A stretch of DNA of 64,000 nt from Candidatus Hydrothermarchaeales archaeon (GCA_036444275.1 JAZGAD010000012.1:1-64000), one strand, 5' to 3'. Counted from the stretch's first letter, positions 3,145 to 35,125 are shown. The notes: generated by a model from the letters alone, not told the origin. Numbers and translations: made by a program.

Positions 3145-4155
<1,011 letters not shown>

Positions 4156-9240: not shown

Positions 9241-9275
9241 TACAATATTTAAGTCAACGTGAGGTTTGATACGCT

Positions 9276-9647: not shown

Positions 9648-9657
9648 GTAAGATACT

Positions 9658-9798: not shown

Positions 9799-9804
9799 GA
9801 CCCG

Positions 9805-10728: not shown

Positions 10729-10784
10729 AATAGTTTTCAGCTACTAGGACAATTTTTAATAGTACTCTAATTACTCTAGATAAC

Positions 10785-10952
10785 ATGGACGAATTGGACC
10801 TGAAGGCCTTTAGAAAGAAGGTAAGAGAGACACGGGAGCGGGAGTGGGTAAGGGATGCAATTCGTCTTAGGGATAAGACTCCTGAGGAAACCTTGGAGAT
10901 GATGTTTGATCTATTGAACTTCGCAGAGAAGATGAGTAGGGCTACGAGATGA
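10785..10952 (+). CDS. Small helical protein (55 aa), probable partner of the downstream nucleotidyltransferase
   Basis: MDELDLKAFRKKVRETREREWVRDAIRLRDKTPEETLEMMFDLLNFAEKMSRATR*; ATGA overlap with next gene; TTTTAATA box upstream. Confidence 0.7.
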   Translation: MDELDLKAFRKKVRETREREWVRDAIRLRDKTPEETLEMMFDLLNFAEKMSRATR

Positions 10953-11503: not shown

Positions 11504-11622
11504 TTGCAATCCAAGAGCAAGGGACAAGGCCTATATCCAGTGCGTCGACCCAGGGAAGCCTTATAATGATGGAGGAACAGTGGTCTTTGAATTCGTACTA
11601 AAATAGGAGAAAACTTTGGAAT

Positions 11623-12375
11623 ATGAAAATGGATACAGACGAGATAATATACCTTAAAAAGCCCAAGCTTAGGGGTGCCACGGCTATTGCAGGCTCTCAG
11701 GGCTTGAGATCAGTTGGTTCAGTAGCGATAGATTATCTAATCGAAAGGTGGAAGCCAGAGCTCTTTGCAGAGCTGCACTCCTCCAGCTTTCCGGTGCTAT
11801 ATCACGGCGTACCATACGCAGGGGCTACAGGCGAGGCTGGAATCAAGGTGCAGAAAGGCATGGTGGATGCACCTAAAATAGAATTTTATCAGGGCAAGAA
11901 ACTCGTTATCACCAAGGGCTACCAGGCAGAGTTCAGCGGGCAGTATAAAGTCGCACGCACAGTTATAGATCTGTATAAAGAGCTGGATGTGAAGAGGATC
12001 ATCGTCTTAGGCGGCTATGTGCATAGAGCTCAAGATAAGCCGCTGTCAGAGAAACCTAGGGGGGTATCCTTTTGCGCGACCACTCCAAAGATCGTAAAGG
12101 AAATGGAAAAGCTTGGACTCGGGAGTGAGTACATAGGTCCCTTCCTCGGCTTTTCAGCCCTCGTCTTAGGTGTTGGCATGCGGGAAGGAATTGAAGGCAT
12201 AGCATTGTTCGGGGAGACTGTTCCTGATTTCGATAGGCCTACGAATCCTGACCCAGCTGCAGCGACGGCAGTGCTGGAGAAACTCAGCCTCGTATTGGGA
12301 ATAGAGATCGATACCTCTGGCTTGTTTGGGAAAGAGGAACGAGAAAAGGTAGAAAAGATATCAGGCTACATCTAG
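11623..12375 (+). CDS. PAC2-family proteasome assembly chaperone
   Basis: GLRSVGSVAIDYL, IIVLGGY, GIALFGET, PDPAAA, C-terminal GYI (HbYX-like). Confidence 0.8.
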   Translation: MKMDTDEIIYLKKPKLRGATAIAGSQGLRSVGSVAIDYLIERWKPELFAELHSSSFPVLYHGVPYAGATGEAGIKVQKGMVDAPKIEFYQGKKLVITKGYQAEFSGQYKVARTVIDLYKELDVKRIIVLGGYVHRAQDKPLSEKPRGVSFCATTPKIVKEMEKLGLGSEYIGPFLGFSALVLGVGMREGIEGIALFGETVPDFDRPTNPDPAAATAVLEKLSLVLGIEIDTSGLFGKEEREKVEKISGYI

Positions 12376-12514
12376 AAGCACGATACAGCTCTTTTCAACG
12401 TGAAGCGTGAGCGCAGAGAAGAAATTGTGATATCATACCGAAAATAATGCTGATATTATAGAAGTTGCTAAAAAAACTAGAAGAGCAAAATGGTCAGGTT
12501 CGGATCAAAAAGCA

Positions 12515-12718
12515 TTACTCTTTCTTGGCGTGTTTTCCGTTGTGGCCGTTTGCAGGTATTACGGTATGGTCGCTTATCCGCATTTTGCCACAGCGCTCGG
12601 TCTCTAATTTGCGGCAGTGGATATAGATGTTTCCATTGTCTTTGTCTGACCAGAAGTCCGCTGGGCAGTGCTCTATGCACTTGAGGTAGAGTTCCGGGGA
12701 TATCGTTAGACCGTCCAT
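12515..12718 (-). CDS. Small Cys/His-containing hypothetical protein
   Basis: 67-aa ORF with an AT-rich TATA-like element (12752-12759) upstream on the minus strand. Confidence 0.4.
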   Translation of the reverse strand: MDGLTISPELYLKCIEHCPADFWSDKDNGNIYIHCRKLETERCGKMRISDHTVIPANGHNGKHAKKE

Positions 12719-13074
12719 CTTCTCTAATTATGAACTTGTCCGGGAGAGGTATATATATTGGGTTAACATTTTTGATTGGAGGTGCTACATCCGTGGCTTT
12801 AGTGCTCTTATATACCTTACTCTAGGGTACTAGTCAATTTTGAGACATAGTAAAGATTTAATCCGGAATTCGTTGATTTCTTATATCCTATACTTTCTCA
12901 AGAATTCATGGATACGGGCAGGGTATTATTTTTTTCAAATAATCTTATATATGGTATATCACACCATACTAAGTGGGGTGTATGAAGGTCTTAATGACAG
13001 CTCTGGAAAGTATGTGCATAAAATCGTGGATAAAGAGAGAAACTTAGACGAGATAAAGGACCTCATAAAACATT

Positions 13075-13518
13075 ATGGACGAAGAGGTGTTTGGCGTGAT
13101 AATCGAGATTAAGAAATCCCTGAAGAAGGAAGAGGTAATAAGCCACTTGGAGAACAAGTATGGTTCCTTCGAGAAGCTGGGGGATATGGTGAAAAAAGGA
13201 TGTGAGTCCCCTGAGGCAGTTGACGACTACGAGGTATGGAAGGCTGTTAGGGAAGGAAAAGAATACGAGGAGAGCATAAGGGTTGAGGAGGCTGGAGTTT
13301 TAACGGTCTTGACTCCGAAGCGGATAGAGCTTTTGGAGTACCTAAAGAGAAAGCATCCTAGATCCATAAAGGAGTTGTCCAAACGATTGGGAAGGGACTA
13401 CAAGAATGTATATGGGGACCTCAAGTTGCTGAGCGATTACAATGTGGTTGAGCGGTTGGAGAAAAAGAGGAATATTGTGCCAACGTGCCACGTTAAAGAG
13501 ATCATAGTCAGTTTTTAG
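13075..13518 (+). CDS. Winged-HTH regulator/antitoxin (COG4190-like)
   Basis: LTPKRIELLEYL...SIKELSKRLGRDYKNVYGDLKLL. Confidence 0.8.
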   Translation: MDEEVFGVIIEIKKSLKKEEVISHLENKYGSFEKLGDMVKKGCESPEAVDDYEVWKAVREGKEYEESIRVEEAGVLTVLTPKRIELLEYLKRKHPRSIKELSKRLGRDYKNVYGDLKLLSDYNVVERLEKKRNIVPTCHVKEIIVSF

Positions 13519-13558
13519 GCATAGTGTCTTTCGTTATCAAGCGAGACCACATCTGAAT

Positions 13559-14005
13559 TCACTCAAACATCTTGGCTTCTATGATCGGTACATCTCCCTT
13601 TATCTTCAAGAGGTGGGCGTCAGTAGTATAAAATGCGTCAACCCTTTTAATGCAAGTGATTAGGTATATTGCATCCTGGTAAGAGAGCTGGGACTTTTTA
13701 GTGTAATACCTCCGCCTGAGCTTTCCGGCCTCCCATGCGATGCTGTTCTCCACGCTCACGATTTTCAAACCACTCATGGTCTCAATGACGTGCCTCGCTG
13801 CCTCGAGCTCGACTCCGTCCTTTCCCTCCCTCAGAAATGCCCATGCCACCTCAGCCAGTGCTATGGAGCTCGTAATCCCTGCATTCCTTGAGCCTATGGA
13901 TCTCAGAATTCTCTCGGACCCGCTTACGTTCTCCGCATCGGTTTTAGTGGATTCCGGAAGGAGGACGCACAAAAAGACGTTTGCGTCTATGCCTATCCTT
14001 CCCAC
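13559..14005 (-). CDS. vapC: PIN-domain VapC toxin
   Basis: IDANVF, ALAEV, LSYQDAIYL, FYTTD. Confidence 0.9.
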   Translation of the reverse strand: MGRIGIDANVFLCVLLPESTKTDAENVSGSERILRSIGSRNAGITSSIALAEVAWAFLREGKDGVELEAARHVIETMSGLKIVSVENSIAWEAGKLRRRYYTKKSQLSYQDAIYLITCIKRVDAFYTTDAHLLKIKGDVPIIEAKMFE

Positions 14006-14256
14006 ACTTCCATCTCCCTGTGCACTTCCCTCGCAGTACCACTGAGTTTCGCTTTTCTCCCGAGGTGCTTTAATGCCTTAACGGGGTCACTCGGCAGTCT
14101 GACTAGCACCCATCTATCATTGTCCTTTACGAAAACTATCCTGTCTCCTTCATTCGCCCCTAATTCCTCCCTTACCCTCTTGGGCAGGGTTATCTGAAAC
14201 TTTGAGGACAGCCTGCTAACTTCCATTTCTTTACCTCGAAAATTTATCTTTACCAA
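13993..14256 (-). CDS. AbrB/MazE/SpoVT-family antitoxin
   Basis: SSKFQITLPKRVREELG..EGD; overlaps vapC start. Confidence 0.9.
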   Translation of the reverse strand: MVKINFRGKEMEVSRLSSKFQITLPKRVREELGANEGDRIVFVKDNDRWVLVRLPSDPVKALKHLGRKAKLSGTAREVHREMEVWEG

Positions 14257-14310
14257 TATAAATATTCTTTACCCTCTAGTAGAATTCTTGTAATCGCTAA
14301 TGTCGCAGGG

Positions 14311-14370
14311 GAGTACATTGAGGAATATGTCTCTACGAAAGAACTCATGAGTGATCACGGCACACAATTT
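14311..14370 (+). pseudogene. Short DDE (rve/IS3-IS481-type) transposase remnant
   Basis: In-frame EYIEEYVSTKELMSDHGTQF; SDHGTQF resembles the second catalytic Asp motif of rve integrases; ends exactly at the 35-bp repeat. Confidence 0.45.
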
Positions 14371-14481
14371 AATCCGGAATTCGCTGGTTTTTTATACCCT
14401 ACCCTAAAAGTTCTTGTTATGGGGGAGCACGAGGGTTGGAGAAAGCCATGGTATGGGCGGACGTATAGCCCTAAGGATGGC

Positions 14482-15168
14482 ATGGATAGGACCCGGATAA
14501 AGGACATGCCGAGGGGCGAGAGGCCTAGGGAGAGGCTTGCCAGGCATGGCGGCGCTGCTTTGTCTACCTCGGAGTTGCTTGCTATACTTATCAGAGTTGG
14601 GAGGCGCGGCGAGACAGCACTTGACGTAGCGAATAGGCTGCAGCGTAAATATGCAAATCTCAAGGCATTACTTTCTGCAGATGTCAACGAGCTCTCCAGA
14701 ATACCAGGCATGGGCTTCGCCAAGGCGGTTCAACTGAAGGCGGTACTGGAGTTGGCAAAGCGCCTCGACTATCCCAACACCGATAGGTTCGAGATCTCCA
14801 CGCCTAAGGATGTGGCTGAATTCCTTATGCCCAAGATGAAGGATCTGGATAAGGAGCAGCTTACTCTTCTCTGCTTAGATACGAGGTGCGGCATCATAGA
14901 CAACGTAGAGGTTGTAGTTTCTGTGGGCTCCCTCAACCTCAGCATCATGGATCCTAGGGGAATCTTCAGGGTTGCACTGGCTAAGAATGCTGATTCCGTT
15001 ATAATAGCACATAATCATCCATCTGGCGATCCTGATCCGAGCGATGGCGACGTGGAGGTTACTAAAAAGGTGATAGAATCCGGGAAGATGCTCGGTGTCG
15101 AGGTAAGGGACCACGTCGTGATTGGTGATGGGAAGTTCTTCAGCATGAAGGAAAAGGGATTGATATAG
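14482..15168 (+). CDS. radC: RadC family JAB-domain protein
   Basis: ERPRERL..G..ALS..ELLAIL, AHNHPSGDPDPS..D, DHVVIG; likely start MDRTRIKDMP at 14482. Confidence 0.92.
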   Translation: MDRTRIKDMPRGERPRERLARHGGAALSTSELLAILIRVGRRGETALDVANRLQRKYANLKALLSADVNELSRIPGMGFAKAVQLKAVLELAKRLDYPNTDRFEISTPKDVAEFLMPKMKDLDKEQLTLLCLDTRCGIIDNVEVVVSVGSLNLSIMDPRGIFRVALAKNADSVIIAHNHPSGDPDPSDGDVEVTKKVIESGKMLGVEVRDHVVIGDGKFFSMKEKGLI

Positions 15169-15234
15169 GGTGCACTTATGTGGTCAATCTCTGAGAGCGC
15201 AAAGCTTATATCCTCTGATACAGATGCACAAAAT

Positions 15235-15792
15235 ATGATACAGTTGTATCAAAAAATTACACGCATGCGGGTCCTTCTGCTGTTTATGAAGAATCCCTAT
15301 GAGAGATACTATCTGCGGGAGACGGCAAGGCTACTGAAAATGAGTCCAATGACTGTTAAGCGATCTTTAGATTTATTGACAAAGGAAAAGTTGCTGGTTA
15401 AGGAGAAGATAAAAAACCAGATTTTGTATTCAGCGAATATAGAAAGCCCAGGGTTTAGGCATCTCAAAATTGCATATAACCTTGCATGGTTTGAGAAAAA
15501 GGAGACTGTAAAATTTATTAAAGAAATGCTCCCTACGATGAGCTCCCTCGTGCTTTACGGTAGCTTAGCAAAGGGAGAAGATGATGAAAAAAGCGATGTC
15601 GATTTTCTTGTGATATCTCAATCAAAAAGGGCGATAGATATGGAACTTTCACAGCACCTTGGGAGAGAAGTAGCGGTCTTGAACTTAACTCCGGCGCAGT
15701 GGAGCGAAGAAGCCAAGAAAAACAGGGGTTTGTATCTCGATGTCATAACAGAGGGAATAGTTCTATACGGGACGAGGCCGGTTGTAGAATGA
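15235..15792 (+). CDS. HTH + minimal nucleotidyltransferase (MNT antitoxin)
   Basis: N-terminal YLRETARLL HTH; LYGSLAKGED..SDVDFL; likely start 15235. Confidence 0.88.
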   Translation: MIQLYQKITRMRVLLLFMKNPYERYYLRETARLLKMSPMTVKRSLDLLTKEKLLVKEKIKNQILYSANIESPGFRHLKIAYNLAWFEKKETVKFIKEMLPTMSSLVLYGSLAKGEDDEKSDVDFLVISQSKRAIDMELSQHLGREVAVLNLTPAQWSEEAKKNRGLYLDVITEGIVLYGTRPVVE

Positions 15793-16217
15793 ACTTGGAT
15801 GGATGTTTCGAGAAAAGGCTTCTAAAGAGGAGAAGGCCGGACAGACTAAAAAGCCAAAAGGCACTAGAAATTGCGGGAGAGGATATCAAAGACGCAGAAA
15901 GACTGCTAGAGCACAGCTTTTACAAAGAAGTGGTGTTGAAGGCATACACGGCGATGTTCCAGTGCGCAAGGGCAGTCCTCTTCAGAGATGGGGTATTTGA
16001 AAAAAGCCACTACTGCGTTATCCAATATCTCTCTGAGAATTATGTCAAGAAAGGGAAGCTCGAACAGAGCTATGTCCACTGGCTGGATACTTATCGCGTT
16101 GCAAGGCACGAAGCACTCTATGGATTGGAAAAGGCAGACTATAGCGATACAGACGCGAGCGACGCCCTCATGAAAGCGAAGAAGTTCTTGAAGGCGTTTG
16201 CGAAGATAGCGGTATAG
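15789..16217 (+). CDS. HEPN-domain protein (MNT-HEPN TA toxin)
   Basis: AYTAMFQCARAVL, EKSHYC, RVARHEALY; ATGA overlap with MNT. Confidence 0.88.
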   Translation: MNLDGCFEKRLLKRRRPDRLKSQKALEIAGEDIKDAERLLEHSFYKEVVLKAYTAMFQCARAVLFRDGVFEKSHYCVIQYLSENYVKKGKLEQSYVHWLDTYRVARHEALYGLEKADYSDTDASDALMKAKKFLKAFAKIAV

Positions 16218-16424
16218 AAGTGAAGTATTCCCGGGATTCGCTGAATTCTTGTATCTTATCGGATTCCCTCCATCGGCGATAGACGTTCTTCAGCATGACG
16301 GAGAAGGGACTGATCTAGCCTACATGCAAGTTATTTGAAACCACAAATGTGTTCCTCCTGATAATAAAGTCGTTATTCAAAAACTTTTACGTTGGTAGGT
16401 TTATGTATGGGTATGGGAATAAAA

Positions 16425-16676
16425 ATGGGAAAAACTAGGATTGACGAGCGGGGTAGGGTGACCTTACCGGGCTACATTAGAGAAGAGATGGGGCTTTATC
16501 CTGGGAAAGAAGTGAACTTAGAAAAGGCCGGGAAAGGAGTTCTCATCAGACCTGTAGTTTCAAAGGAAGTCTTCGTCCAAAGCCTAGAAGGATGCATTAC
16601 CGAGAAGAACCAAGCTGAAAAGCTCGATCCCTTGGCGTTAACGAGGATATGGGGCGCTTTCCATGCTCATGATTGA
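16425..16676 (+). CDS. AbrB/MazE-family antitoxin
   Basis: IDERGRVTLPGYIREEMGL.PG. Confidence 0.88.
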   Translation: MGKTRIDERGRVTLPGYIREEMGLYPGKEVNLEKAGKGVLIRPVVSKEVFVQSLEGCITEKNQAEKLDPLALTRIWGAFHAHD

Positions 16677-17070
16677 TTCCAATATCTGGGCATATTTTTT
16701 CGACAGCAATACTCCAGAGCATAAAAAGGTTAAAAAGCCGGTGAGAGATGCCATCGGGAACAACGAGATCCTCATGAGCACAGTGATTCAAATGGAGCTC
16801 ATCCATTATCTCATAAAAAGACTTGGCCCGATTATGGGCGGGGAGAAACTGGACATCTTCTTAAATTATCCCTTCAAACTAGATGTACTGGATCAAGGCC
16901 TCGTGAACATATCCCTTGGGGTCTTCCAGCGGTATTATCACCTCGGAATCGGTGTGAGGGACGCGAGTATAATTGCGAGCATGAAGAGAAACGATGTTAC
17001 GAAGCTGATAACCCATGATAAGGCCCTTAAAAAAATCGAAGAGATAGAACTTATCGATCCCGTGTCATAG
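16663..17070 (+). CDS. vapC: PIN-domain VapC toxin
   Basis: IDSNIW, QMELIH, VRDASI, LITHD. Confidence 0.9.
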   Translation: MLMIDSNIWAYFFDSNTPEHKKVKKPVRDAIGNNEILMSTVIQMELIHYLIKRLGPIMGGEKLDIFLNYPFKLDVLDQGLVNISLGVFQRYYHLGIGVRDASIIASMKRNDVTKLITHDKALKKIEEIELIDPVS

Positions 17071-17273
17071 AAGCTGAGGATGTAAAGGTCCTGGAGAAGA
17101 TAATTGACATAGCTAAAAGGGAGCTGAGTCCATTGGAATATGCCCGTTTCTTGGTTTTGGTAACGCCCAAAAAAGGAGACACCGTAAAGGAACTGCGGAA
17201 GCTCAGTGATAGAGAAACCAATGATGAGATCGTAGAGATGTTGAGGAAGAGAGGAGTGACCATTACTCCTTAG
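17064..17273 (+). pseudogene. Start-less antitoxin-like remnant
   Basis: Open frame VIEAEDVKVLEKIIDIAKRELSPLEYARFLVLVTPKKGDTVKELRKL...* resembles small archaeal PIN-partner antitoxins; no nearby start codon seen. Confidence 0.45.
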
Positions 17274-20200
17274 TTTCTTTCTTACCTTTTCTCGCGGGGG
17301 CAAACGAAGCTTCGACGATTTTTATCTCATCTTCGGTGAGCCCGTAGAGCTTGTAAACAATTTGATCAATCAGCTCATCTGTACGCTTAATCTTCTCTAT
17401 GAGCGGGTTGAGCTTCGCAATGCTCATTTCAAACTCACCTTTCAACTTTTCTTGTAACTCCCTGGGGCTTGGGTCTACAGCAAGCTTATTTTTGTTCTTC
17501 TTCAGAACTTGGAGTAAATTTTCAAATGAGTTAGTATAATATTCCTTTATCGCAGTCTTGTTCGACAGATCTTCAACCTTCGTACTAATCTCCCTCTCCA
17601 ACCAACCAATGAAGCCTTTGATTTCACTGTTTTTTTGTTTAGTGTCCTCTATCATTTGCTCCGCAAGAAAAGCGAGGAAGTCATGGATGACGTCGGACTT
17701 TTCCTTCTCAGCAATGAAGTTGCCCTCTTTGTCTTTTGGGAGATATTCTTCGGTCTTGCTTAAAAGGGTCCCAAAATCGCCTTTAGAATATATAAACGTA
17801 AGTTCCTGGGCGAGTTTTGAGCGTTCTTCCTGTGGAGTTGCAAAGGAGATGCGGCGAATTGGAAGTTTTCTCAATTCTGTAATTGTGGTCTGCCTAAAAT
17901 CATCTTTTGTTGCTAATGTAGAGAAATTAATGTACATAAAAGAATGAAAGTTGCTATTAAGATTGGCAAGGAGATAGTAAGGTGAATATTCCTTGGTGGT
18001 AATTACAAAGGGGTTAACATCTTTTTTTGACACAAATGTATCAGTTACGAACGTTGCCATCAACCGATTGGCTCTACTCACTATTCTCCTAATAAGAATC
18101 CTTGGTTTAGTATAATACTCCCACAAATTTCTAGCTGAACTAAAATCGATGTATCTCTTTGATTCGGTTATAAATCGATATCTGTAAACTTGGCCTAATA
18201 CATAAGGTAGATAATCATCTGATTTCTTTTCATTATCATAGCTATAGAAAGATTCGACAATTCCTTGGGTCGATTTAGTGATCGAACCTAAACGGATAAT
18301 GAATTTCGATTGAGTCTTTTCCAAAAATTCATAATTAGTGACACTAGTGTATACTTTATAATCTGAGTTAGTCGAAACATAAGAGAAAGGAATTAAGTTA
18401 GCATCAAATAATTCATTCTTAATATCTTGAATTTTTGCTCTTTTATCATAGTGCTTTGCCAAGAAACGAAAGTCTTCTGGAGGCAGTGTATTAGATTTTA
18501 CAAATAGTGCTATACAATTATCAATATAAGCGTCTGGGAATACATCAAATGGTAAATTAATAATTTTGGAGAGAAAGGCTTTATTTGAGAATATTATTTT
18601 ACGGAACTTGCTATAATTTTCACCAGTTTGCCATGCGATAGGTACAATCATTCCAAGACTTCTTCCATTTCGAGTAATTTTAAGGCCTTCACTAATGAAA
18701 AGAATAGATGTATCGTACTTTCTATAGGCAACTTCCAAATTTTGAATGTAGAATTGACTATCTTCATCAGAGATATCCTCAGTCGGGATATACGGTGGAT
18801 TCCCAACCACCACATCAAATCCTGGATTTTCCTTGTCTTTTCCGGGTTCGAAGAATATATCCGGGAACTCTAGCTTCCAGTGAAAAAAGTTTTTCTTCTT
18901 AGCAATTTCTGTGGCACGTTTGAAATATTCTTTCTCCTTTACTTGCTTCCATGCTTCCTCGCCTTTCTGAAAAGCTCTTAAAGCTTCCTCATACTCGCTC
19001 TTTGAATATTTGTTGCCGAAATGGTAGGAAGTATGTATATTTGCAAGTTCAATGAAGCGCTTTCGTAAGGGTTGCCTCATCAATTCCTCGAAAACCTGCT
19101 CCTTGTATTTTATGTCCTCGATTTTCTCCTCAGCCCGTTCCATTATCCAAGTGTACATATTCAACAACTTGTCGATGCTCTCCCGAATAGAGGCCCGCAT
19201 GAAACTAGAGAGAGCTAACTGAGAACGCGTCTCCCCTGCCTTTAGCTCGCTGGGATGTTTGTCTAATTTGTGGATGTCCGCCCCTATCAGAGAGTTGCCT
19301 ACCTTGAGGTGGTGGTCCAAAAAGGAAAGAGGTCGAGAGGCCTCGAGGGTGCTTAGCCATAGAGACAGCTTCGCTAGTTCAGTAGCTAGGGGATTCAAAT
19401 CTACGCCGTAGATGCAATGCTTCACCACCTCGCGCTTGGCCCAGTCGATTTCCTTCTCATCGCTGAGTTGCTCTGGTTTGACGTAAGGCACTATTTTCTT
19501 GGCGAGGAACTCTGTGGCTTCAACGAGGAAGTGACCACTACCCATAGCGGGATCAAGAACTTTAATAGAGAGGATACGCTCGATCTTCTCATCATCAGTC
19601 TTCGTTCCTTTGAGCTTTTCCTTGACAACTGGATCCAACGTGTTCTCTACAATGTAGTTGACGATGTAGTCAGGAGTGTAATAGCTCCCCGTTGCTTTGC
19701 GCTCACCCTTATCAGTTACGATATAGAGTTCACCGGCCTTGGATGTATCAATAATATTTTTTCCCTCTGCCTCCTCCTCAGGAATCCAGACTTCCTTACC
19801 CTTATGCTTGACTGTCACAAGGTTCTTATCGGCAACGTGGAGCTTGTATTCAAGCAAGCCCTCGTAGATAGAGCCCAAATGGCGGATTTCGAGTGTTGAG
19901 TAGTCTATGAAGGCAATAACGTCCTCATCGGGTGGAATTGTGAGCAGTTCTAGTACGTCTGCAACATACGTGTCCCCGACTTTCTTCTCAACGAGGAAGG
20001 TGTGCTCCTTTGCGTGGAAGAGACCGCCGTTATAAGGCGGGACAAACAAATCCTCTTTGGGTATTCCCCTGGCCTCGCTTCCCTCGTCGATGAGCTGGAA
20101 GATGGTACTCAGTCTGTCCCAAAACTCGGAGGAGTGCTCTGAGAGCGTACCTTCTTGCTTCCGTGCGAGGGCCTGAGCCTTTATCCTGTTAATATCATAG

Positions 20201-21123
20201 TACTCATAACCAATCTTATGCAGGCCGCTCAGCGTACCTCTGCTGTCAGCATAGAGGATGAAAAGCAGTCGATATAGGAATATAAGGAGGTTATCATGAA
20301 TTTTCTCGATGGTATCCAAGTTCGGAGTTAAATTGTTGTTAGGCCCGTTTAAGAACCCTTGGGCAAGGATCTTCAAAGCCTTGTAGACGTTTTTCTCTAG
20401 GTCCTCGCCTACCTTCTTCGCATAGCTCACGCCCTCGGCGTAGACCGTCTCCAGAAAATTCATCCCGCTCCCGTCTCTGAGGAAGGCCTCCTTGCGGAAG
20501 AATAAGTAGAAATACTTGAAATTTTGTTTAGACCCCTTTTCGAGGATATCAGCTAAGTCGACTTCATAGTAGCTATCGAGACGGTAGCTGGTCTTTTGAT
20601 TATAAAGCCTCCAAAACTTGCCATCGGTTAAAATCGCCCATTTAGTATCAGTATCGCGAAGATAAGTATCGATCTGATAGCTCGGGTTATCATAGACGTA
20701 CTTTGCTTTACCACTTGACTTCTTATCAAGTGGAGTGCCACATTTCTTCGCGTCTGCGACCGCTATTGCGCTGTGGTAGAATTCTTTCTTCCCTTTACTT
20801 TTCAGGGCCTCTCTCCGCGACTCATCATCCTTGAAAAAAGCATAGTCAGGGGTCAGGCCACCCTTATAGCTAGTCTGCTGTACCTCGTAAATATGGCCTA
20901 ATTTACGCAGAACTGGTCTGATAAAGTTCTCCTCTAATTGTGCTTCCTCATAGCGATGAAAAAGGGATTTCTCTCTATCGTAAAGCTCTTTAATTTCCCT
21001 GAAGACGCGCTCAAGCTCTTCCTGTCCTTCGCTCCAAATTCGCAGGGTCCTCAGTTTATCATCTAGGTAATGGCGTGAAAACAGGTTCTTCGTCTCAACT
21101 GGTGCCAACTTTAGCTGAACCAT
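17263..21123 (-). CDS. Type IIG (Eco57I-like) fused restriction endonuclease / N6-adenine methyltransferase with TaqI_C-like TRD
   Basis: N-terminal PDYAF..DAKK nuclease, RKATGSYYTP, VLDPAMGSGHFL, GVDLNP, VVGNPPY; likely start MVQLKL at 21123 after a TATA box. Confidence 0.93.
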   Translation of the reverse strand: MVQLKLAPVETKNLFSRHYLDDKLRTLRIWSEGQEELERVFREIKELYDREKSLFHRYEEAQLEENFIRPVLRKLGHIYEVQQTSYKGGLTPDYAFFKDDESRREALKSKGKKEFYHSAIAVADAKKCGTPLDKKSSGKAKYVYDNPSYQIDTYLRDTDTKWAILTDGKFWRLYNQKTSYRLDSYYEVDLADILEKGSKQNFKYFYLFFRKEAFLRDGSGMNFLETVYAEGVSYAKKVGEDLEKNVYKALKILAQGFLNGPNNNLTPNLDTIEKIHDNLLIFLYRLLFILYADSRGTLSGLHKIGYEYYDINRIKAQALARKQEGTLSEHSSEFWDRLSTIFQLIDEGSEARGIPKEDLFVPPYNGGLFHAKEHTFLVEKKVGDTYVADVLELLTIPPDEDVIAFIDYSTLEIRHLGSIYEGLLEYKLHVADKNLVTVKHKGKEVWIPEEEAEGKNIIDTSKAGELYIVTDKGERKATGSYYTPDYIVNYIVENTLDPVVKEKLKGTKTDDEKIERILSIKVLDPAMGSGHFLVEATEFLAKKIVPYVKPEQLSDEKEIDWAKREVVKHCIYGVDLNPLATELAKLSLWLSTLEASRPLSFLDHHLKVGNSLIGADIHKLDKHPSELKAGETRSQLALSSFMRASIRESIDKLLNMYTWIMERAEEKIEDIKYKEQVFEELMRQPLRKRFIELANIHTSYHFGNKYSKSEYEEALRAFQKGEEAWKQVKEKEYFKRATEIAKKKNFFHWKLEFPDIFFEPGKDKENPGFDVVVGNPPYIPTEDISDEDSQFYIQNLEVAYRKYDTSILFISEGLKITRNGRSLGMIVPIAWQTGENYSKFRKIIFSNKAFLSKIINLPFDVFPDAYIDNCIALFVKSNTLPPEDFRFLAKHYDKRAKIQDIKNELFDANLIPFSYVSTNSDYKVYTSVTNYEFLEKTQSKFIIRLGSITKSTQGIVESFYSYDNEKKSDDYLPYVLGQVYRYRFITESKRYIDFSSARNLWEYYTKPRILIRRIVSRANRLMATFVTDTFVSKKDVNPFVITTKEYSPYYLLANLNSNFHSFMYINFSTLATKDDFRQTTITELRKLPIRRISFATPQEERSKLAQELTFIYSKGDFGTLLSKTEEYLPKDKEGNFIAEKEKSDVIHDFLAFLAEQMIEDTKQKNSEIKGFIGWLEREISTKVEDLSNKTAIKEYYTNSFENLLQVLKKNKNKLAVDPSPRELQEKLKGEFEMSIAKLNPLIEKIKRTDELIDQIVYKLYGLTEDEIKIVEASFAPARKGKKETKE

Positions 21124-21206
21124 TCTATCAATTATTGCATAAGGGTTAGAATATAAAATCCTTTTCTCCCGAAAACCCCTATAGTACATGGTCGTAAACA
21201 AAAAAA

Positions 21207-21275
21207 GAAGGATTTGTTATAACCACATACATCACGGATAGAGTAAAAGAAGGTGAAGTCCTATGGAAAAAATAA
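21207..21275 (+). pseudogene. C-terminal remnant of a RelE/DUF4258-like toxin
   Basis: EGFVITTYITDRVKEGEVLWKK* overlapping the start of the DUF2283 gene; 5' part absent. Confidence 0.6.
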
Positions 21276-21457
21276 AGATAGTCTTCAGCAAGGAGACAAA
21301 TACACTGGATGTTTGGTTCGATGACCCAGCGAAGGAATTCATATGTGAAGAGATCATCTTAAAAAAGGATAAGAAAAACAGGGTCATCGGTTTCGAGAAA
21401 CTGAATGTCACCTCTAAAAGGGGCAGTGCCCTTCCCTTTGAAGTGATCACTGTCTAA
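21263..21457 (+). CDS. DUF2283-family antitoxin-like protein
   Basis: NTLDVWF.DP..E.ICEE, ILKKDK..RVIGFEKLN. Confidence 0.75.
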   Translation: MEKIKIVFSKETNTLDVWFDDPAKEFICEEIILKKDKKNRVIGFEKLNVTSKRGSALPFEVITV

Positions 21458-21765: not shown

Positions 21766-22218
21766 CTAATCACTAAGTCTACTAAAAGTTGCATACTCAG
21801 GGTACTTTCGGTATACCTCGTTTATAATCATCTCCAAGGAAAAAAAACGATATCTAGTTTTTATGGTAATTAGAGCTTCTAAAGTACGTATGAAAGAATT
21901 ACGATACTTAGCGTTGCTTAAAACCTTTTTAATTAAATTTTCTCCTTTCTTAGTTAAGAAGTACTGGTATCCAATCTTTTCCCCATAATGCTCAGGACTT
22001 TCTGTTATGAGTTCTTCCCCTGCGAGAACGTCTAGATCGTTTTGTAGTTCAGCAGAATATGGACCGAAATCATAGGGAAAGAAGCTATACCATTCCTCAA
22101 CATCCGTTCCCTCCTTCTGTGCTAAAAAAATCATCTTTTGAAATCTTGTTCTGCCGGAGATATATCTACCCTTATCAGCATATAACAGAAGTAGAGGAAC
22201 TACCTGTCTAAGAAGCAA
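21766..22218 (-). CDS. YwgA/SocA(Panacea)-like winged-helix protein
   Basis: ISGRTRFQKMIFL, FFPYDFGPYSAEL, YFLTKKG, VYRKYPEY; likely TTG start at 22218 after GGAGGTGA. Confidence 0.7.
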   Translation of the reverse strand: MLLRQVVPLLLLYADKGRYISGRTRFQKMIFLAQKEGTDVEEWYSFFPYDFGPYSAELQNDLDVLAGEELITESPEHYGEKIGYQYFLTKKGENLIKKVLSNAKYRNSFIRTLEALITIKTRYRFFSLEMIINEVYRKYPEYATFSRLSD

Positions 22219-22957
22219 TCCTATCACCTCCCGGTTTTGATCCTTTTTTAAAGGTCTTCTCAAATTCCCTTTCGAGCAGAATGGCCATTTTTTCGTCCAC
22301 AATCACTGAGGCTACTTCGTAATTGCCAGAAATCCATATAACTATCTTATGGTCAAATACACAAAAGTTCATCGAGTGATCCTTCGAGGTCTGGATATTA
22401 ATTCCAGCATCTACCATTCGATAGAGCTTGCTTGTACCTGAACCATTCAAAATCACAATTTTAATTACTCTACCCGTACCAAGGTATTCTTTAATCCTCC
22501 CAATATCTTTGGAGCTGACCCATTCTAGATTTGAAAGGGACATTAGAACCGAAGTATGATTGGCTTCAAGTAACCTGCGGATCTCGCCAACTATCCCGCT
22601 TATCCCTGTAACTTGCCATGCCTTCTCGTTTTCTTCAATCTTTTCGTTCCTAATTTCCCAAGCCTGTTCTGCCCTTGTCAATGCCTTTCCACAGGCTTTT
22701 TCCAGTAGTTTCTGCTCTTGCTCAAGTATGTATCTGGGATTTTGTGCATCGTATTTTCGGGGTCTGCTCCCTGCTTTTATTACTGCCCCTCTTTTCTCAA
22801 GCTGCGACATTATAGTGTATATTTTTCCTTCTGGGACTTTTGACCTGAAGGCAAGATCTTTTACCTTGGATGCTCCGTGCTCCACCAATGCGCAGTAGGC
22901 TTTTATCTCGTAGCTATTCCATTCCAAGCGTTTGAGAACTTCTTCAAGTTGTTTCAT
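22208..22957 (-). CDS. TrmB-family transcriptional regulator (HTH + PLD-like sensor domain)
   Basis: YEIKAYCAL...LAFRSKVPEGKIYTIMSQLEKRG...RPRKY; C-terminal FCVFDHK. Confidence 0.85.
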   Translation of the reverse strand: MKQLEEVLKRLEWNSYEIKAYCALVEHGASKVKDLAFRSKVPEGKIYTIMSQLEKRGAVIKAGSRPRKYDAQNPRYILEQEQKLLEKACGKALTRAEQAWEIRNEKIEENEKAWQVTGISGIVGEIRRLLEANHTSVLMSLSNLEWVSSKDIGRIKEYLGTGRVIKIVILNGSGTSKLYRMVDAGINIQTSKDHSMNFCVFDHKIVIWISGNYEVASVIVDEKMAILLEREFEKTFKKGSKPGGDRIAS

Positions 22958-22972
22958 TTTTAATCAACCTTC

Positions 22973-23049
22973 AGTTGTTTCTAATAAACAACTTCTATAT
23001 GTTTATTTTAGCCGCCTAAACTTTTAGTTGATTTGACAACATTTAAATA
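22973..23049. promoter_or_regulatory. Divergent promoter region with palindromic operator(s) and TATA box
   Basis: Perfect IR AGTTGTTT-N5-AAACAACT (22973-22993); GTTG-N6-CAAC (23027-23040) directly before TTTAAATA (23042-23049), ~24 nt ahead of the Ubl ATG. Confidence 0.65.
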
Positions 23050-23072
23050 TTTCGGCGTTCTACTATACTCGC

Positions 23073-23333
23073 ATGAACCAAGAAAAAGAATCAGAACCCA
23101 AGAAGAAGGAGGGAGTTGTGGTCCACTTCAATAACGAAAAATTTGTGCTCCCAGAATCCAAAACAACCGGAGCTGACCTCTACCAAACCTTTGGTGTCCC
23201 ATCTGGGAACAAGCTCTTCCTAGATGTGAAGAGTAAGAACGAACCTGACAAGCTCATCCCAAACGATGCTGCAGAAATTGAGCTTAAAAATGGGGACCAT
23301 TTCTACGATTTACCCCCCGGTACTGTAGGATGA
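23073..23333 (+). CDS. Ubiquitin-like (multi-ubiquitin-domain type beta-grasp) protein
   Basis: VHFNNEKF...TGADLY...LF...PDKLIPND..IELKNGDHFY, ending PPGTVG-COOH. Confidence 0.8.
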   Translation: MNQEKESEPKKKEGVVVHFNNEKFVLPESKTTGADLYQTFGVPSGNKLFLDVKSKNEPDKLIPNDAAEIELKNGDHFYDLPPGTVG

Positions 23334-23713
23334 AAAATTTGCTCCCACGAGTTAAAGAGGAGATAGAGCAAATCAAAGAAGAATACCCAGGCACAGTTAT
23401 TAGAATGCAATCCAACGGCGGTGTCCACCTAGAGATTCCCAACATGCCTTTGCCTAAGTGGTGGGAGCCTCCAACGATATCCTTGCTTATCGTATTGCAG
23501 CCCGATTATCCGAACTCAAGACCAGGATTCTTTACCCCCCCCGATGTGAAACTCAAAGAGAATGGCAATCCGCCAGGTGGATCAAGCGAGGCAGAAATAG
23601 AAGGCAAAAAATGGAAAGGCTACTGTTGGAATCCCAGCCAGTGGGATCTATCCCGTGAGACGCTGTGGAAGTTCGTAAAATTTGCTATCTTACGTTTTAA
23701 CGAAAGGCAATAA
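23330..23713 (+). CDS. Prokaryotic E2/UBC-fold conjugating enzyme (Prok-E2 family E-like)
   Basis: PLPKWW...LLIVLQPDYPNSRPGFF.P....L...P...GKKWKGYCWN...WD....TL; single Cys; ATGA coupling to Ubl. Confidence 0.8.
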   Translation: MKNLLPRVKEEIEQIKEEYPGTVIRMQSNGGVHLEIPNMPLPKWWEPPTISLLIVLQPDYPNSRPGFFTPPDVKLKENGNPPGGSSEAEIEGKKWKGYCWNPSQWDLSRETLWKFVKFAILRFNERQ

Positions 23714-23723
23714 GGGTGGTGCG

Positions 23724-25127
23724 ATGAGCGTAAATGAGCTAAGGTTCTCATTCATGGATTATAGAAAGTTAAAAGAACACCTTTTAAGTGGGGGGAATAG
23801 GGAAGAAGCTGCACTGCTCCTAGCTGGAGTTTCGAGGATGGATCAGCGCACGGTATTAACTGTTCGGGAAGTTATCCCTGTGCCGACTTCAGGATATCAA
23901 ACCAAAGGAGGGCTCTTCTTGCAGGTTGACCCGGAGTTCATGGCACCGCTAATAAAAAGGTGCCGGTATGAAAACGCTTCTTTCATTCTTACCCATAGTC
24001 ACCCCTTCAGCGGTCATTCTGTTGGATTCTCCAGCGTCGATGACGAGGGTGAGGAAATTCTTGTTCCAAAATTGAAAGCTAGAATACCAGGGAGACCTCA
24101 TGGATTTCTCGTATTTGGGCAGGATAGTATTGCTGGAAGGATGTGGCTTAGCGAAAAGGAAAATAGTGATTCTATTGACATCATCAGGGTGATCGGGGAG
24201 AGAATTAAAATATTTAATACCACTAATAGCAAGGTTGAAATGAATGGAGGGGATGTTAGCGAAAGGGAGGCATACCATAGGCAGATTCTTGTCATCAGCC
24301 CAAGAGCTCAGAAAATCCTTGAAAAGATTACTATTGGCGTTGTAGGAACCGGGGGAGTTGGGTCGCAAGTCTTTGTCCAGATGGTCCATCTTGGTGTTGG
24401 AAAGATTATAGCAATTGATGATGAAGTTTTGGAGAAATCTAATCGCTCCAGAGTTCTGGCATCCAAGCCTGAGGATGTGAAACAAGAAGTTCCTAAGGTG
24501 GAGATCATGAAGAGGTATGCTGATGCAACGAATCCCAGTGTACTTGTGGATGCAATAATGAGCCCTATAGAGTTCAATTCCGTAGCCATGAAACTCAGGG
24601 AAGCGGACGTTATTTTCTGTTGCACTGACAATGTAAGGAGTAGGGTAGTCTTGAACAGATTGTCTTTTCAGTACCTTATCCCTCTCATCGACATGGGAGT
24701 AGATATCCAGTTCGATCATGGGAAAATCCATGCCGCCGCTGGCCGTGTTATGTTGATACAGCCAGATGGCCCATGCCTAGAATGCATGGGAATCATAACC
24801 GGAGAGGCAATAGACAGGGAATCCAATAGAAATCCTACCCTTCCCCGGGGTTCATATGTTACCATGTTGGGGGAAGGTGAGAAAGGGCATCATGCCCCTG
24901 CCGTGGTGTCTTTTAACGGTGTTGTTGCGTCCCTTTCGGTGACCAGGCTCCTAGACATGGTTTCTGGTATCCAGGACCGAAGGAGGCCCAGGACATACGA
25001 AATGTTTTTGATTCAATCCGGCGAAGTGAGGCCTTATTCGATGGAGCCATTTGTTAAATGCACTATGTGCAAGGAGGTAAAGGGTTATGCCGATGATATT
25101 TCACTCCCTTGTGAACTTGATAAGTAA
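23724..25127 (+). CDS. JAB/MPN peptidase - ThiF/E1 fusion protein
   Basis: JAMM motif E..(REEAA)...HSHP......FS.VDD; E1 motifs VVGTGGVGS, D....SNRSR, CTDN..SR, DMG, PCLEC, CTMC. Confidence 0.88.
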   Translation: MSVNELRFSFMDYRKLKEHLLSGGNREEAALLLAGVSRMDQRTVLTVREVIPVPTSGYQTKGGLFLQVDPEFMAPLIKRCRYENASFILTHSHPFSGHSVGFSSVDDEGEEILVPKLKARIPGRPHGFLVFGQDSIAGRMWLSEKENSDSIDIIRVIGERIKIFNTTNSKVEMNGGDVSEREAYHRQILVISPRAQKILEKITIGVVGTGGVGSQVFVQMVHLGVGKIIAIDDEVLEKSNRSRVLASKPEDVKQEVPKVEIMKRYADATNPSVLVDAIMSPIEFNSVAMKLREADVIFCCTDNVRSRVVLNRLSFQYLIPLIDMGVDIQFDHGKIHAAAGRVMLIQPDGPCLECMGIITGEAIDRESNRNPTLPRGSYVTMLGEGEKGHHAPAVVSFNGVVASLSVTRLLDMVSGIQDRRRPRTYEMFLIQSGEVRPYSMEPFVKCTMCKEVKGYADDISLPCELDK

Positions 25128-25158: not shown

Positions 25159-25608
25159 ATGGTGATTGAAAGACAAAACCTAAAACCTCTAAGGAAAAAC
25201 ATAGAAATATTGTTATTCTTTATTATAATCGTTTTAACAGCAGGATGTGTTGACTCAGTTTCAGTTAACTTTGTGCAAAGAGAGATCAATTTTTCCAAGA
25301 GCGCCAATAATCCGATTACTCAAACATTCATCATCGAGAGTACATACCCCGGAGCCCAATTTGTGGATGTAGAAATAACTACGAATGACGAAAGAATTGT
25401 TTTAGCAAAGGATTTAGAGAGAAACTTTCAACCCAGTCTAAGTTACCCTGTAGAATTGGGTAAAGAGTATCCAAGAAACTACTCTTTCAGTTTTAAAGTT
25501 TCTGATAAAAATATTCCAAATGGAAAATATTACATAACAGCTAAAATAATGGGGGCCGAAAGTAAAGATTCGTCCACTAAATCTTTTAATGTGAAAATAG
25601 TTGATTAG
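25159..25608 (+). CDS. Putative lipoprotein with beta-rich (Ig-like) domain
   Basis: Basic N-region, hydrophobic stretch, LTAGC lipobox; AT-rich like the adjacent island. Confidence 0.6.
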   Translation: MVIERQNLKPLRKNIEILLFFIIIVLTAGCVDSVSVNFVQREINFSKSANNPITQTFIIESTYPGAQFVDVEITTNDERIVLAKDLERNFQPSLSYPVELGKEYPRNYSFSFKVSDKNIPNGKYYITAKIMGAESKDSSTKSFNVKIVD

Positions 25609-29196: not shown

Positions 29197-29421
29197 ATGA
29201 AGCGATATCGGCTATCTGTGGTGGTTGAAAAAGATGCAGATGGATACTTTGCTTTTTGTCCTGAGCTTCAGGGATGTTATACCCAAGGTGATAGTTATGA
29301 GGGGGCTTTAAAGAATATTAAAGATGCAATTCGTCTTCATATTGAGGATAGAATAGAAAATAAGGAGAGTATTCCTATCATTGAATCTATCAGCCTGACT
29401 TCTTTGGAAGTAGCAGTATGA
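29197..29421 (+). CDS. hicB: HicB-family antitoxin
   Basis: VEKDADGYFAFCPELQGCYTQGDSYE. Confidence 0.9.
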   Translation: MKRYRLSVVVEKDADGYFAFCPELQGCYTQGDSYEGALKNIKDAIRLHIEDRIENKESIPIIESISLTSLEVAV

Positions 29422-29648
29422 GCAAGAAGCTCCCTCGTATATCTGCTGGTAAAGTCATGAAGGTATTGGAGAGGGTGGGGTTTGTTTGCGTCCGTCAAAG
29501 CGGTAGCCATAAGATTTACAAAAACAAAGAAAGAAAAAGGGTGACCGTCCCTTATCACTCAGGGAAAATCCTCCACCCCAAAGTCTTAAAAAACATTCTT
29601 AGAGATGCAGATTTGACTATAAAGAGGTTCAAAGAACTGATGAAGTAG
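29418..29648 (+). CDS. hicA: HicA-family toxin
   Basis: GFVCVRQSGSH, VTVPYH, LKNILRDA. Confidence 0.92.
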   Translation: MSKKLPRISAGKVMKVLERVGFVCVRQSGSHKIYKNKERKRVTVPYHSGKILHPKVLKNILRDADLTIKRFKELMK

Positions 29649-33720: not shown

Positions 33721-35124
33721 TCACGCTTTTTTATATCCCGGATGAAATTCTTTGATATACTCTTCACTTACCCGCTTCAGCTCACGCTCCGGCAGGATGC
33801 TCAGCAACTCCCATCCTATCTCCAAAGTACGCTCTATAGTTCTGTCCTCCTCTTTGTCCTGAGCGACGAACTCCCTCTCAAAGCGGTCCGAGAACTCCAA
33901 GTACTTCCGGTCCTTCTCTGTAAGAGCTTCCTCTCCGACCACAGCAACTAGATCCCTGAGATCTCTTCCCTCAGCGTAGGCAGAATACATTTGATCGCTT
34001 ACATTGGCATGGTCCTTCCTGGTCTGACCTTCTCCTATACCGCCCTTCATAAGCCTTGATAGACTGGGTAGCACGTCTACAGGTGGGTATATGCCCTTTC
34101 TGTATAGCTCCCTAGATAGGACGAACTGCCCTTCTGTTATATACCCGGTGAGATCAGGTATTGGATGGGTTATGTCGTCGTCTGGCATTGTAAGAATTGG
34201 CATCTGGGTTATCGAGCCCTTCTTGCCGTGCACCCTTCCAGCGCGCTCGTATATAGTCGCAAGGTCGGTGTACATATATCCAGGATAGCCCCTTCTTCCG
34301 GGAACCTCGCTCCTAGCAGCTGCTATTTCTCGTAGAGCTTCGCAATAATTGGTCATATCTGTGAGGATGACAAGCACATGCATCCCCTGCTCGTAGGCAA
34401 AATATTCAGCTGCGGTAAGGGCCATCCTCGGTGTGATGATGCGCTCGATCGCTGGGTCGTTAGCTAGATTTAAGAAAGCCGTAACCCTCTCAAGTGCCCC
34501 AGTCCTCTTGAAATCCCTTATGAAGAAGCTTGCCTCCTCATAGGTTATACCCATGGCAGCGAAGATAACTGAGAACTCCTCCTCCTTGCCCAGTACCCGC
34601 GCCTGCCTGGCTATCTGGGCTGCAAGTTCGTTGTGCGGCAAGCCCGAGCCAGAGAATATTGGAAGTTTCTGTCCTCTAACCAAGGTGTTCATGCCGTCAA
34701 TAGTGGACACGCCGGTTTGGATGAAGTCCCGTGGGTATTCACGTGCAGTTGGGTTGGTTGGGTTGCCATGGATATCCAACTCATCTTCAGGTATGATCAT
34801 CGGGCTTTTATCGATGGGCCGTCCAGTACCGTCGAAGATCCTGCCCATCAGCTCCATGGAGACCGGCAGCTTAATTGTCGTGCCTGTGAACCTGGCCTTC
34901 GTCCTGCTTGCATCTATACCACGCGTCCCCTCGAAGACCTGTACCACTGCTCTGTCCTCTGCTATCTCCAGCACTTGGCCACGCCTCTTCTCGCCGGTGG
35001 CTGTCTCTATCTCCACTACCTCGCCAAAACCAACTCCTTTAACTCCCTCTACCACCATGAGTGGCCCAGCTACTTCGGTGACAGATGTGTACTCCTTGAA
35101 CCTCAGGGCAAGTTTGTCGGGCAT
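33721..35124 (-). CDS. atpB: A/V-type ATP synthase subunit B
   Basis: [48 protein letters not shown]. Confidence 0.97.
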
Positions 35125-35125
35125 T

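Follow-up and report, generated by a model that had tools for sequence, protein, structure and literature searches.

Bub, a bacterial system for the conjugation of a ubiquitin-like protein (Ubl), has been presented as unique in that conjugation proceeds without a catalytic cysteine. Does a natural branch of this lineage exist that uses a cysteine after all, and does it occur in archaea? The question is raised by a three-gene locus within a 64,000-nucleotide stretch of DNA from Candidatus Hydrothermarchaeales archaeon (GCA_036444275.1 JAZGAD010000012.1:1-64000), hereafter the window, which encodes a Ubl, an E2 protein and a JAMM peptidase fused to an E1. The operon is real, intact, Bub-related and archaeal. 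It probably represents a three-gene Ubl-conjugation operon of the Bub (6E) lineage, belonging to a distinct cysteine-type subtype that lacks BubE, carried on a Hydrothermarchaeota-like chromosome and of likely bacterial origin. No earlier description of a cysteine-type, BubE-less subtype was found.

In Type I Bub, three genes make up the operon: BubAB, in which Ubl and E2 are fused until BubCD cleaves them; BubCD itself; and BubE, a serine protease of the DUF6527 family (Ye et al., 10.1101/2024.11.21.623953). The two catalytic positions that take the place of cysteines are Tyr370 of the E1 and Ser333 of the E2, the latter aided by His335 and Asp299; the crossover-loop Tyr of BubCD was shown to be essential and BubB Ser333 and His335 were needed for conjugation (10.1101/2024.11.21.623953). 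BubE is stated to be present in all Bub operons, and structures are available for the Citrobacter sp. proteins (PDB 9ea4, 9eae and 9ea8; 10.1101/2024.11.21.623953). The E2 serine is called invariant in the available text of Ye et al. (10.1101/2024.11.21.623953) and Gong et al.

The three genes of the window operon are all on the plus strand:

23073-23333 (+), Ubl, BubA-like; open reading frame (ORF) of 86 aa, one beta-grasp domain
23330-23713 (+), E2, BubB-like UBC fold, Pfam Prok-E2_E; 127 aa, 33.5 bits
23724-25127 (+), JAMM peptidase-E1 fusion, BubCD-like; 467 aa from ATG, the ORF reaching a TTG at 23682

The genes are tightly coupled. The TGA stop of the Ubl gene shares bases with the ATG of the E2 gene in an ATGA overlap. 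For the JAMM-E1 gene, the ATG at 23724 is the more likely start than the TTG at 23682, because it lies 10 nt past the E2 stop with GGGTGGTG just 5' of it. The same three-gene order was seen again at 39-49% identity in another archaeon and in one bacterium, and chance is therefore no issue. A first-pass annotation of the window had read these genes as a beta-grasp Ubl of 86 residues ending in Gly, a 127-residue E2-fold protein with one Cys, and an intact JAMM peptidase fused to a ThiF/E1. All three readings stand: the Ubl ORF is in place and Gly86 is followed directly by the stop; Cys99 is the sole Cys of the E2 protein, whose Prok-E2_E score exceeds the cut-off of 25 bits; and the JAMM residues are present ahead of a ThiF domain (E 1.6e-34). 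The same annotation proposed a bacterial-type Ubl-E2-JAB/E1 conjugation operon without an E3, which agrees with the Bub (6E) affiliation found here, no E3 being seen. The placing among bacterial types can be narrowed: the operon is of the Bub lineage, Cys99 stands at the Ser position and DUF6527 is missing, and as a separate variant it is a plain member of neither Bub nor Bil.

The E2 protein carries the main evidence. Its AlphaFold2 (AF2) model is confident (predicted local distance difference test, pLDDT, 94.5; predicted template-modelling score 0.88; 62-sequence alignment). Whether the 127-residue protein takes a UBC fold had been named beforehand as a check, and the top PDB match of the model by Foldseek is BubB (9eae_C; template-modelling (TM) scores 0.81/0.80, root-mean-square deviation 2.7 A, E 6e-6), with the canonical E2s Cdc34, UBE2N, Atg10 and Rad6 ranking after it (E 0.05-0.2, TM 0.37-0.56). 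A profile of the E2 family matches BubB at E 1e-14 with the catalytic motif aligned. Cys99 (codon 23624-23626) falls in the column of the BubB catalytic Ser333, Asn101 in that of His335 and Gly66 in that of Asp299. The E2 orthologues of two relative loci described below, L003 and L001, score 47.4 and 38.2 bits against Prok-E2_E (PF14462).

The cysteine E2 characterizes a whole clade and is not confined to a single sequence. When 1.84 billion representatives were searched exhaustively with HMMER, 122 relatives were returned; two proteins longer than 400 aa were dropped and the window E2 was added, giving an alignment of 121 rows. The catalytic column holds Cys in 36 rows, Ser in 71, and another residue or a gap in 14, and Cys is present in all 19 best-scoring representatives. 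The helper residues of the serine chemistry follow the same division. His at the +2 position is found in 62 of 71 Ser rows and in 0 of 36 Cys rows, where Asn (13), Gln (13) and others (10) stand instead; in a motif-anchored count, the Asp before a conserved Phe is present in 50 of 66 matched Ser rows versus 3 of 36 Cys rows. A quick maximum-likelihood tree was built from 106 rows (35 Cys, 71 Ser), short rows and rows with neither residue being left out and the catalytic columns kept. On this tree the Cys/Ser state requires only two changes, against a mean of 29.5 for shuffled states (0 of 500 shuffles as low). Each type exists in unfused form and as a Ubl-E2 fusion (24 and 12, respectively, for Cys; 48 and 23 for Ser), and an x-Gly junction before the E2 part is kept in 12/12 fused Cys-type proteins.

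The E1 half also points to Bub. The whole JAMM-E1 protein matches Citrobacter BubCD in a phmmer search of the PDB (E 1.3e-31; query 16-437, chain 5-412), ThiF and MoeB structures coming next at about 1e-11, and a profile of 49 relatives matches BubCD at E 1e-76. Pfam recognizes one ThiF domain (residues 198-439 of the ORF). The JAMM residues Glu27, His91, His93, Ser103 and Asp106 (23802-24041) are invariant among the 49 relatives, as are three Gly of the ATP loop Gly208-Gly213. Arg243, equivalent to BubCD Arg227, is kept in at least 90% of them. So is Tyr378 (24855-24857), which aligns with chain Tyr372, the Tyr370 of the paper. The Tyr of the E1 is thus retained next to an E2 that carries Cys.

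The Ubl is predicted by AF2 to be a beta-grasp protein (pLDDT 83) with a disordered, Lys/Glu-rich N-terminal tail of about 11 residues. In the PDB, the folds that best match the model are those of the multi-ubiquitin (BubA) proteins of Citrobacter and E. coli and of BubA(155-229). In a 12-sequence family alignment the C-terminal motif Y..PP.T.G is invariant; the protein ends exactly at the Gly in 7/12 relatives and carries tails of 1-8 residues in 5/12. The Ubl orthologue of L003 scores 16.6 bits against Multi_ubiq (PF14452; cut-off 24.5), and PDB sequence searches with the single Ubl and the single E2 sequences gave no match. The predicted fold and the alignment nonetheless group the Ubl with BubA and the Multi_ubiq proteins.

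Relative loci show which genes travel with each E2 type. A genome scan with a 14-sequence E1 alignment yielded four full-length loci (L001 to L004), to which two plasmid loci were added:

L003, Bathyarchaeia metagenome-assembled genome (MAG); E1 49% identical; Ubl-E2(Cys)-JAMM/E1, same three-gene order
L001, Dehalococcoidia MAG; E1 46% identical; E2(Cys)-JAMM/E1, the E2 at the contig's cut edge
L002, Tepidisphaeraceae, 7319-11278; E1 36% identical; Ser-type, five-gene layout
L004, FCPU426, 7328-11331; E1 31% identical; Ser-type, five-gene layout
L009, Bradyrhizobium plasmid, 4754-8849; Ser-type, five-gene layout, DUF6527 annotated in the record
L010, Planctomycetes plasmid; Ser-type with DUF6527, read here

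The identity of the E1 to that of the window follows the E2 type (46-49% for the Cys-type loci, 31-36% for the Ser-type loci). The L003 Ubl has a 6-residue tail past its Gly. A DUF6527 profile made from four proteins (L002, L004, L009 and L010) was run on all six frames and recovered its controls at 5.6e-43 to 5.5e-58; no DUF6527 turned up in the 64-kb window (best E 5.9) or in the loci L001 and L003, and the window has no Pfam match to DUF6527 either. DUF6527 is therefore present in 4/4 Ser-type loci and in 0/3 Cys-type loci, one of which (L001) is incomplete upstream. A plasmid collection contained 154 records with E1 relatives; among the 25 matches listed all are bacterial with less than 33% identity, and those looked at are Ser-type.

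The Ser-type loci L002, L004 and L009 have a layout of their own, in which separate genes for a Multi_ubiq Ubl and a Ser-x-His E2 precede the JAMM-E1 gene, and a TCAD9/APH kinase-like gene and DUF6527 complete the set. The Bub preprints describe Type I and Type II layouts in their main text, neither of which matches this one; their Table S1 may cover it. Like the window operon, these loci have separate, overlapping Ubl and E2 genes followed by JAMM-E1, and their Ubl proteins (about 86-98 aa) share the C-terminal motif of the window Ubl; unlike it, they combine a more distant E1 with the Ser-x-His E2, the kinase-like gene and DUF6527.

Downstream of the window operon, an ORF at 25159-25608 (+) begins about 30 nt past the E1 stop and has a hydrophobic N-terminus with a lipobox-like Cys. 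It gave no Pfam, NCBIfam or PADLOC family match. It was rejected as a substitute for BubE: it matches no family, lacks zinc-finger cysteines and is without an equivalent in L001 and L003.

These data are consistent with the following pathway. The 86-residue Ubl would be made with a free C-terminal Gly, and the E1 half would adenylate Gly86 with ATP, as suggested by the conserved ATP-site residues and the homology to BubCD. The Ubl would then pass to Tyr378 as an oxyester, by analogy with BubCD Tyr370, and from there to the E2, where Cys99 would hold it as a thioester in place of the serine oxyester of Bub; the position of the Cys and its conservation across the clade argue for this step. A phenolic ester should be reactive enough to make its hand-off to a thiol chemically plausible. 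Finally, the E2 would move the Ubl onto target lysines without an E3. The JAMM half most likely strips the Ubl from targets and recycles it, because the Ubl needs no trimming and the BubE protease is absent; where a relative has a C-terminal tail on its Ubl or a Ubl-E2 fusion, the JAMM half would mature the Ubl as well.

Compared with Type I Bub, the window operon has a JAMM-E1 homologous over its full length that keeps the JAMM site, the ATP site and the crossover-loop Tyr, an E2 with the BubB fold lacking the C-terminal helix pair of canonical E2s, and a BubA-type beta-grasp Ubl ending in Gly, again with no E3. It differs in having Cys99, Asn101 and Gly66 in place of BubB Ser333, His335 and Asp299, in encoding the Ubl, already mature, and the E2 as separate genes, in lacking BubE/DUF6527 and in its archaeal host.

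The host had been taken for an archaeon in the first-pass annotation, and its place in Methanobacteriati is borne out by marker genes. The window encodes equivalogs of beta-RFAP synthase (413 bits versus a cut-off of 328) and of subunit A of the archaeal A-type ATP synthase (998 bits versus 972), together with mevalonate kinase and geranylgeranyl reductase. Among the 120 subunit A relatives listed, 15 are named, and 9 of these 15 are Candidatus Hydrothermarchaeota, the best named one being 82% identical; the others are named Euryarchaeota, Methanobacteriota or 'archaeon'. Judged from these sequences, the host resembles Hydrothermarchaeota and is a Methanobacteriati archaeon. For the A-type ATP synthase A and B subunits (33721-36892, minus strand) no relative of at least 90% identity was found in a collection of 15 billion proteins, the best subunit A relative among those listed being 83% identical; the host lineage is therefore sparsely sampled. 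The large Atlas clusters near the E2 are bacterial, which together with the bacterial plasmid records would agree with a family that is chiefly bacterial and has at times been transferred to archaea. Elsewhere in the window, a type I (bacterial-type) GAPDH (TIGR01534, 453 bits versus 367) and a methyl-accepting chemotaxis protein are encoded at 3145-4152 (minus) and 5451-6881 (minus), respectively.

The surroundings of the operon bear on its function. The nearest features upstream are:

22958-23072, divergent intergenic region, 115 bp
22208-22957 (-), TrmB-family winged-helix regulator; 249 aa, of TrmBL2-like length; Pfam TrmB E 4.6e-17
21766-22218 (-), YwgA/Panacea(DUF4065)-like; 150 aa from TTG (full ORF 21766-22302); PADLOC and Atlas leads
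17263-21201 (-), type IIG restriction-modification (RM) fusion; 1312 aa; Pfam Eco57I, N6_Mtase and TaqI_C domains

Conflict genes are dense at about 10.9-25 kb (10949-21457) and at 29197-29648, so that they reach from about 13 kb upstream to 4.5 kb downstream of the Ubl operon. They comprise a DUF6036 nucleotidyltransferase, two PIN genes with small upstream ORFs, RadC, an MNT+HEPN pair, an HVO_A0114-type winged-helix gene, the type IIG RM gene, DUF2283 and HicB-HicA. The adjoining RM gene had been called type IIG beforehand, a call upheld by its Pfam domains and its PADLOC matches: the best is the DISARM methylase DrmMI at E 4e-99, covering residues 493-853 only, and the type IIG models follow at E 3e-66. 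No other DISARM genes were seen near the RM fusion. The operon lies in an island rich in toxin-antitoxin and restriction genes, a position suggesting that it takes part in conflicts with viruses or mobile elements. The first-pass annotation had called an antiviral role probable; the context makes such a role plausible, and the stronger reading is unsupported.

The full scenario is correspondingly more tentative than the core assignment, and we consider it less likely than not. It holds that the operon belongs to a thioester-type sister lineage of Bub (Cys-E2, Tyr-E1, no BubE, JAMM as the sole peptidase), that an oxyester-to-thioester relay operates in it, as the ancestral state or a reversal of the Cys-free chemistry, that the system crossed into Hydrothermarchaeota-like and Bathyarchaeia archaea, and that it defends against viruses or mobile elements. 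Against the core assignment itself several observations weigh. We infer the Tyr-to-Cys relay from aligned residues. Pfam does not call the JAMM domain in the window fusion, even at E 10, and the Ubl has no Pfam match, Multi_ubiq included, at the same threshold; both labels rest on BubCD homology and structure models. PADLOC is silent on the Ubl and the E2 and matches the ThiF part only with generic Cap2-type E1-E2 models. The link between the Cys type and the absence of DUF6527 is drawn from only three loci, and these share no conserved partner or target gene. The G+C content of the operon (0.458) is like that of the window (0.465; 0.434 at 10.9-25.7 kb), and recent transfer is therefore not visible in composition. 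In addition, the Bub authors report having found no Bub operon that shields E. coli from phage (10.1101/2024.11.21.623953), and a defence function is unproven even for canonical Bub.

The last two points feed the strongest alternative, in which the conjugation chemistry is the same and its role lies outside defence, in the tagging of host proteins during a stress response or regulation, or in a benefit to the mobile island itself. We regard this as possible, though doubtful. A stress response is offered as an alternative role for Bub in the available text of both preprints (10.1101/2024.11.21.623953; Gong et al.), the composition of the operon equals that of the host, and the TrmB family is a common archaeal metabolic or general regulator. 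No record with an E1 relative was found in the phage collection, hence no sign of an arms race. Set against this are the embedding of the operon among toxin-antitoxin modules and an RM gene, the matches of the YwgA-like domain to protein models of PADLOC defence systems, and the occurrence of canonical Bub operons in mobile elements and defence loci, 39% of them beside CapW or CapH+CapP regulators (10.1101/2024.11.21.623953).

A second alternative concerns the E2 itself, which might be a non-catalytic, UBC/RWD-like adaptor with a structural Cys99, the Ubl being transferred directly from the E1 Tyr or the adenylate. The window E2 does have a weak RWD match in Pfam (E 0.0059), and the 6e row of Iyer et al. 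(2006), in the portion of that paper available, lists only bacteria and calls the E2-like domain inactive, RWD-like and without a cysteine. That view was overturned for Bub by the requirement for BubB Ser333 and His335, and Cys99 lies exactly in the Ser333 column, where a coherent clade of 36 rows retains it. An inactive E2 is thus improbable.

Still less probable is a sulfur carrier of the ThiS/MoaD/SAMP kind, with a Ubl thiocarboxylate serving cofactor or tRNA thiolation and little or no conjugation. The E1 half scores against the ThiF, MoeB and UbaA models, ThiS appears further down among the fold matches of the Ubl, and the E1 keeps a CxxC...CxxC pair typical of MoeB/ThiF, in which CxxC 351/354, at the start of the crossover-loop region, pairs with 446/449 as a putative Zn site. 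The pair is missing from Citrobacter BubCD and is also present in the Ser-type loci L002 and L004. Type I Bub is defined by a crossover loop free of cysteine, and although Cys351 and Cys354 look like part of a zinc site, they may have a catalytic role. The NCBIfam scores are far under their cut-offs, however (74.6 bits versus 450 for the UbaA model NF047750, which agrees with the earlier claim that the system is distinct from SAMP). The operon further encodes a dedicated E2 and a fused JAMM peptidase, neither with a role in sulfur transfer, no rhodanese domain or sulfur-acceptor enzyme is present in it, and its closest solved relative is a proven conjugation enzyme. The weakest alternative, an inactive remnant of a transferred operon, draws on the variable island and on the lack of any relative of the E2 or TrmB of at least 90% identity in the protein collection, and is very hard to reconcile with three intact, tightly coupled ORFs in which every catalytic residue is kept.

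The preferred reading, a cysteine-type branch of Bub, also sets the operon apart from the other known systems. It resembles Bil (BilABCD) in combining a Ubl, a Cys-E2, a JAMM and an E1 without an E3, the Bil E2 being of the thioester type; antiviral conjugation by Bil has been demonstrated (10.1101/2023.09.04.556158). In Bil the E1 is a large protein of IAD-AAD-CYS architecture whose catalytic Cys domain is mobile, and the JAMM is a protein of its own. The window E1, in contrast, has one ThiF-type domain with JAMM fused to it and is most similar to BubCD, ThiF and MoeB, and the window E2 belongs to Prok-E2_E, outside the Bil family.

Among archaeal systems, the SAMP/UbaA/JAMM pathway shares with the window operon the archaeal host, a Gly-ending beta-grasp protein, a ThiF-type E1 and a JAMM isopeptidase. 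SAMPylation, to our knowledge, involves no E2, whereas the window encodes a dedicated E2 and has its JAMM fused to the E1. The ubiquitin systems of Caldiarchaeum and Asgard archaea are archaeal E1-E2 cascades with a ubiquitin-fold modifier as well. They use canonical E2s and RING E3s; the window E2 bears only a weak similarity to canonical E2 structures, and general family scans of the window showed no RING gene near the operon.

The operon therefore places a bacterial-type E1-E2 Ubl cascade in Methanobacteriati archaea and, through L003, in Bathyarchaeia. As far as we know, both groups are generally assumed to have only the E2-less SAMP pathway. The Cys clade is a natural set of close Bub relatives in which the E1 Tyr is kept, the E2 has a Cys without the His and Asp helpers, and BubE is absent. 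It thus offers a direct comparison for the origin of the oxyester chemistry, the need for BubE and the workability of a Tyr-to-Cys hand-off.

According to the Methods of the Bub preprints, the catalogue was built from DUF6527-containing operons, and BubE-less operons were therefore excluded by construction. Archaeal operons go unmentioned in the available text of these preprints: the single 'archaea' in the main text of Ye et al. refers to the Pyrococcus JAMM1 structure, and the word is nowhere in that of Gong et al. In the full-text literature covered, DUF6527 and BubCD were found only in Ye et al. and Gong et al., 'Bub' occurring also in the CapK/CapS paper and its preprint. No description of an archaeal Bub-like operon was found in the literature covered; the supplementary tables of the Bub preprints or Burroughs et al. 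(2011) may list such operons.

The operon bears on ideas of Ubl-based immunity in archaea. If the defence reading is true, it would be the first such E1-E2 Ubl system outside the eukaryote-like Aigarchaeota and Asgard cases. It would also be a candidate target of the deubiquitinase-like JAMM proteins that Borgs and other archaeal extrachromosomal elements encode. These proteins are abundant and were proposed, in the available part of the Borg paper, to counter host Ubl-based defence; a link between them and the window system is speculation.

The divergent TrmB and YwgA-like genes are both on the minus strand, as the first-pass annotation had them, and the TrmB assignment is secure in Pfam, the matches to NCBIfam TrmBL1, TrmBL2 and TrmB being far under their cut-offs. 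The label YwgA/Panacea survives as a reasonable lead and not as family membership: the protein has no Pfam match, including SocA_Panacea (PF13274), even at E 10. In PADLOC it matches PDC-M19A (E 2e-15), the DarG C-terminal region (2.4e-6) and a type I S subunit tail (1.7e-9). In the Atlas its neighbours are archaeal and about 150 aa long, with SocA_Panacea in 21% and PadR in 15% of the members of one cluster and a second cluster auto-named DUF4065, and its structural neighbours carry fused antitoxin-like domains. The more likely start is the TTG at 22218, which gives 150 aa: the gene's own GGAGGTGA lies ahead of it, and the Atlas record agrees. From this start the gene has an 11-nt overlap with the trmB stop.

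The region between trmB and the Ubl gene contains a perfect 8-bp inverted repeat, AGTTGTTT-N5-AAACAACT, at 22973-22993, with a third half-site copy at 22947-22955 inside the trmB start. The repeat is a candidate operator. A/T-rich, TATA-like boxes about 24-30 nt ahead of each start codon may be promoters, and the repeat appears to overlap the putative box of trmB. In complex prediction the TrmB and YwgA-like proteins scored 0.40, the best of three controls 0.14; at least 65% of contacts recur between runs, with a partner pLDDT of at least 85. The mark used for such predictions is reached by 51/78 solved complexes and 2/108 mismatched pairs, and at scores of 0.60 or under by 5/78 solved complexes and by all 4 mismatches that passed (of 180). 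A TrmB-YwgA-like complex thus has no more than weak support from modelling.

From the genomic context, the TrmB/YwgA-like pair may control the Ubl operon. The earlier proposal of a joint control module did not hold up beyond this, as it comes down to adjacency in one locus. The Bathyarchaeia locus L003 has no TrmB and carries a different regulator-like gene, so that on present evidence the module is not a conserved feature of the Cys-type subtype. The gene in question (8898-9656) encodes HFX_2341_N and DUF6293_C domains, that is, a Csa3-like Rossmann domain with a winged helix, and overlaps the end of JAMM-E1; it is possibly a ligand-sensing regulator of that operon.

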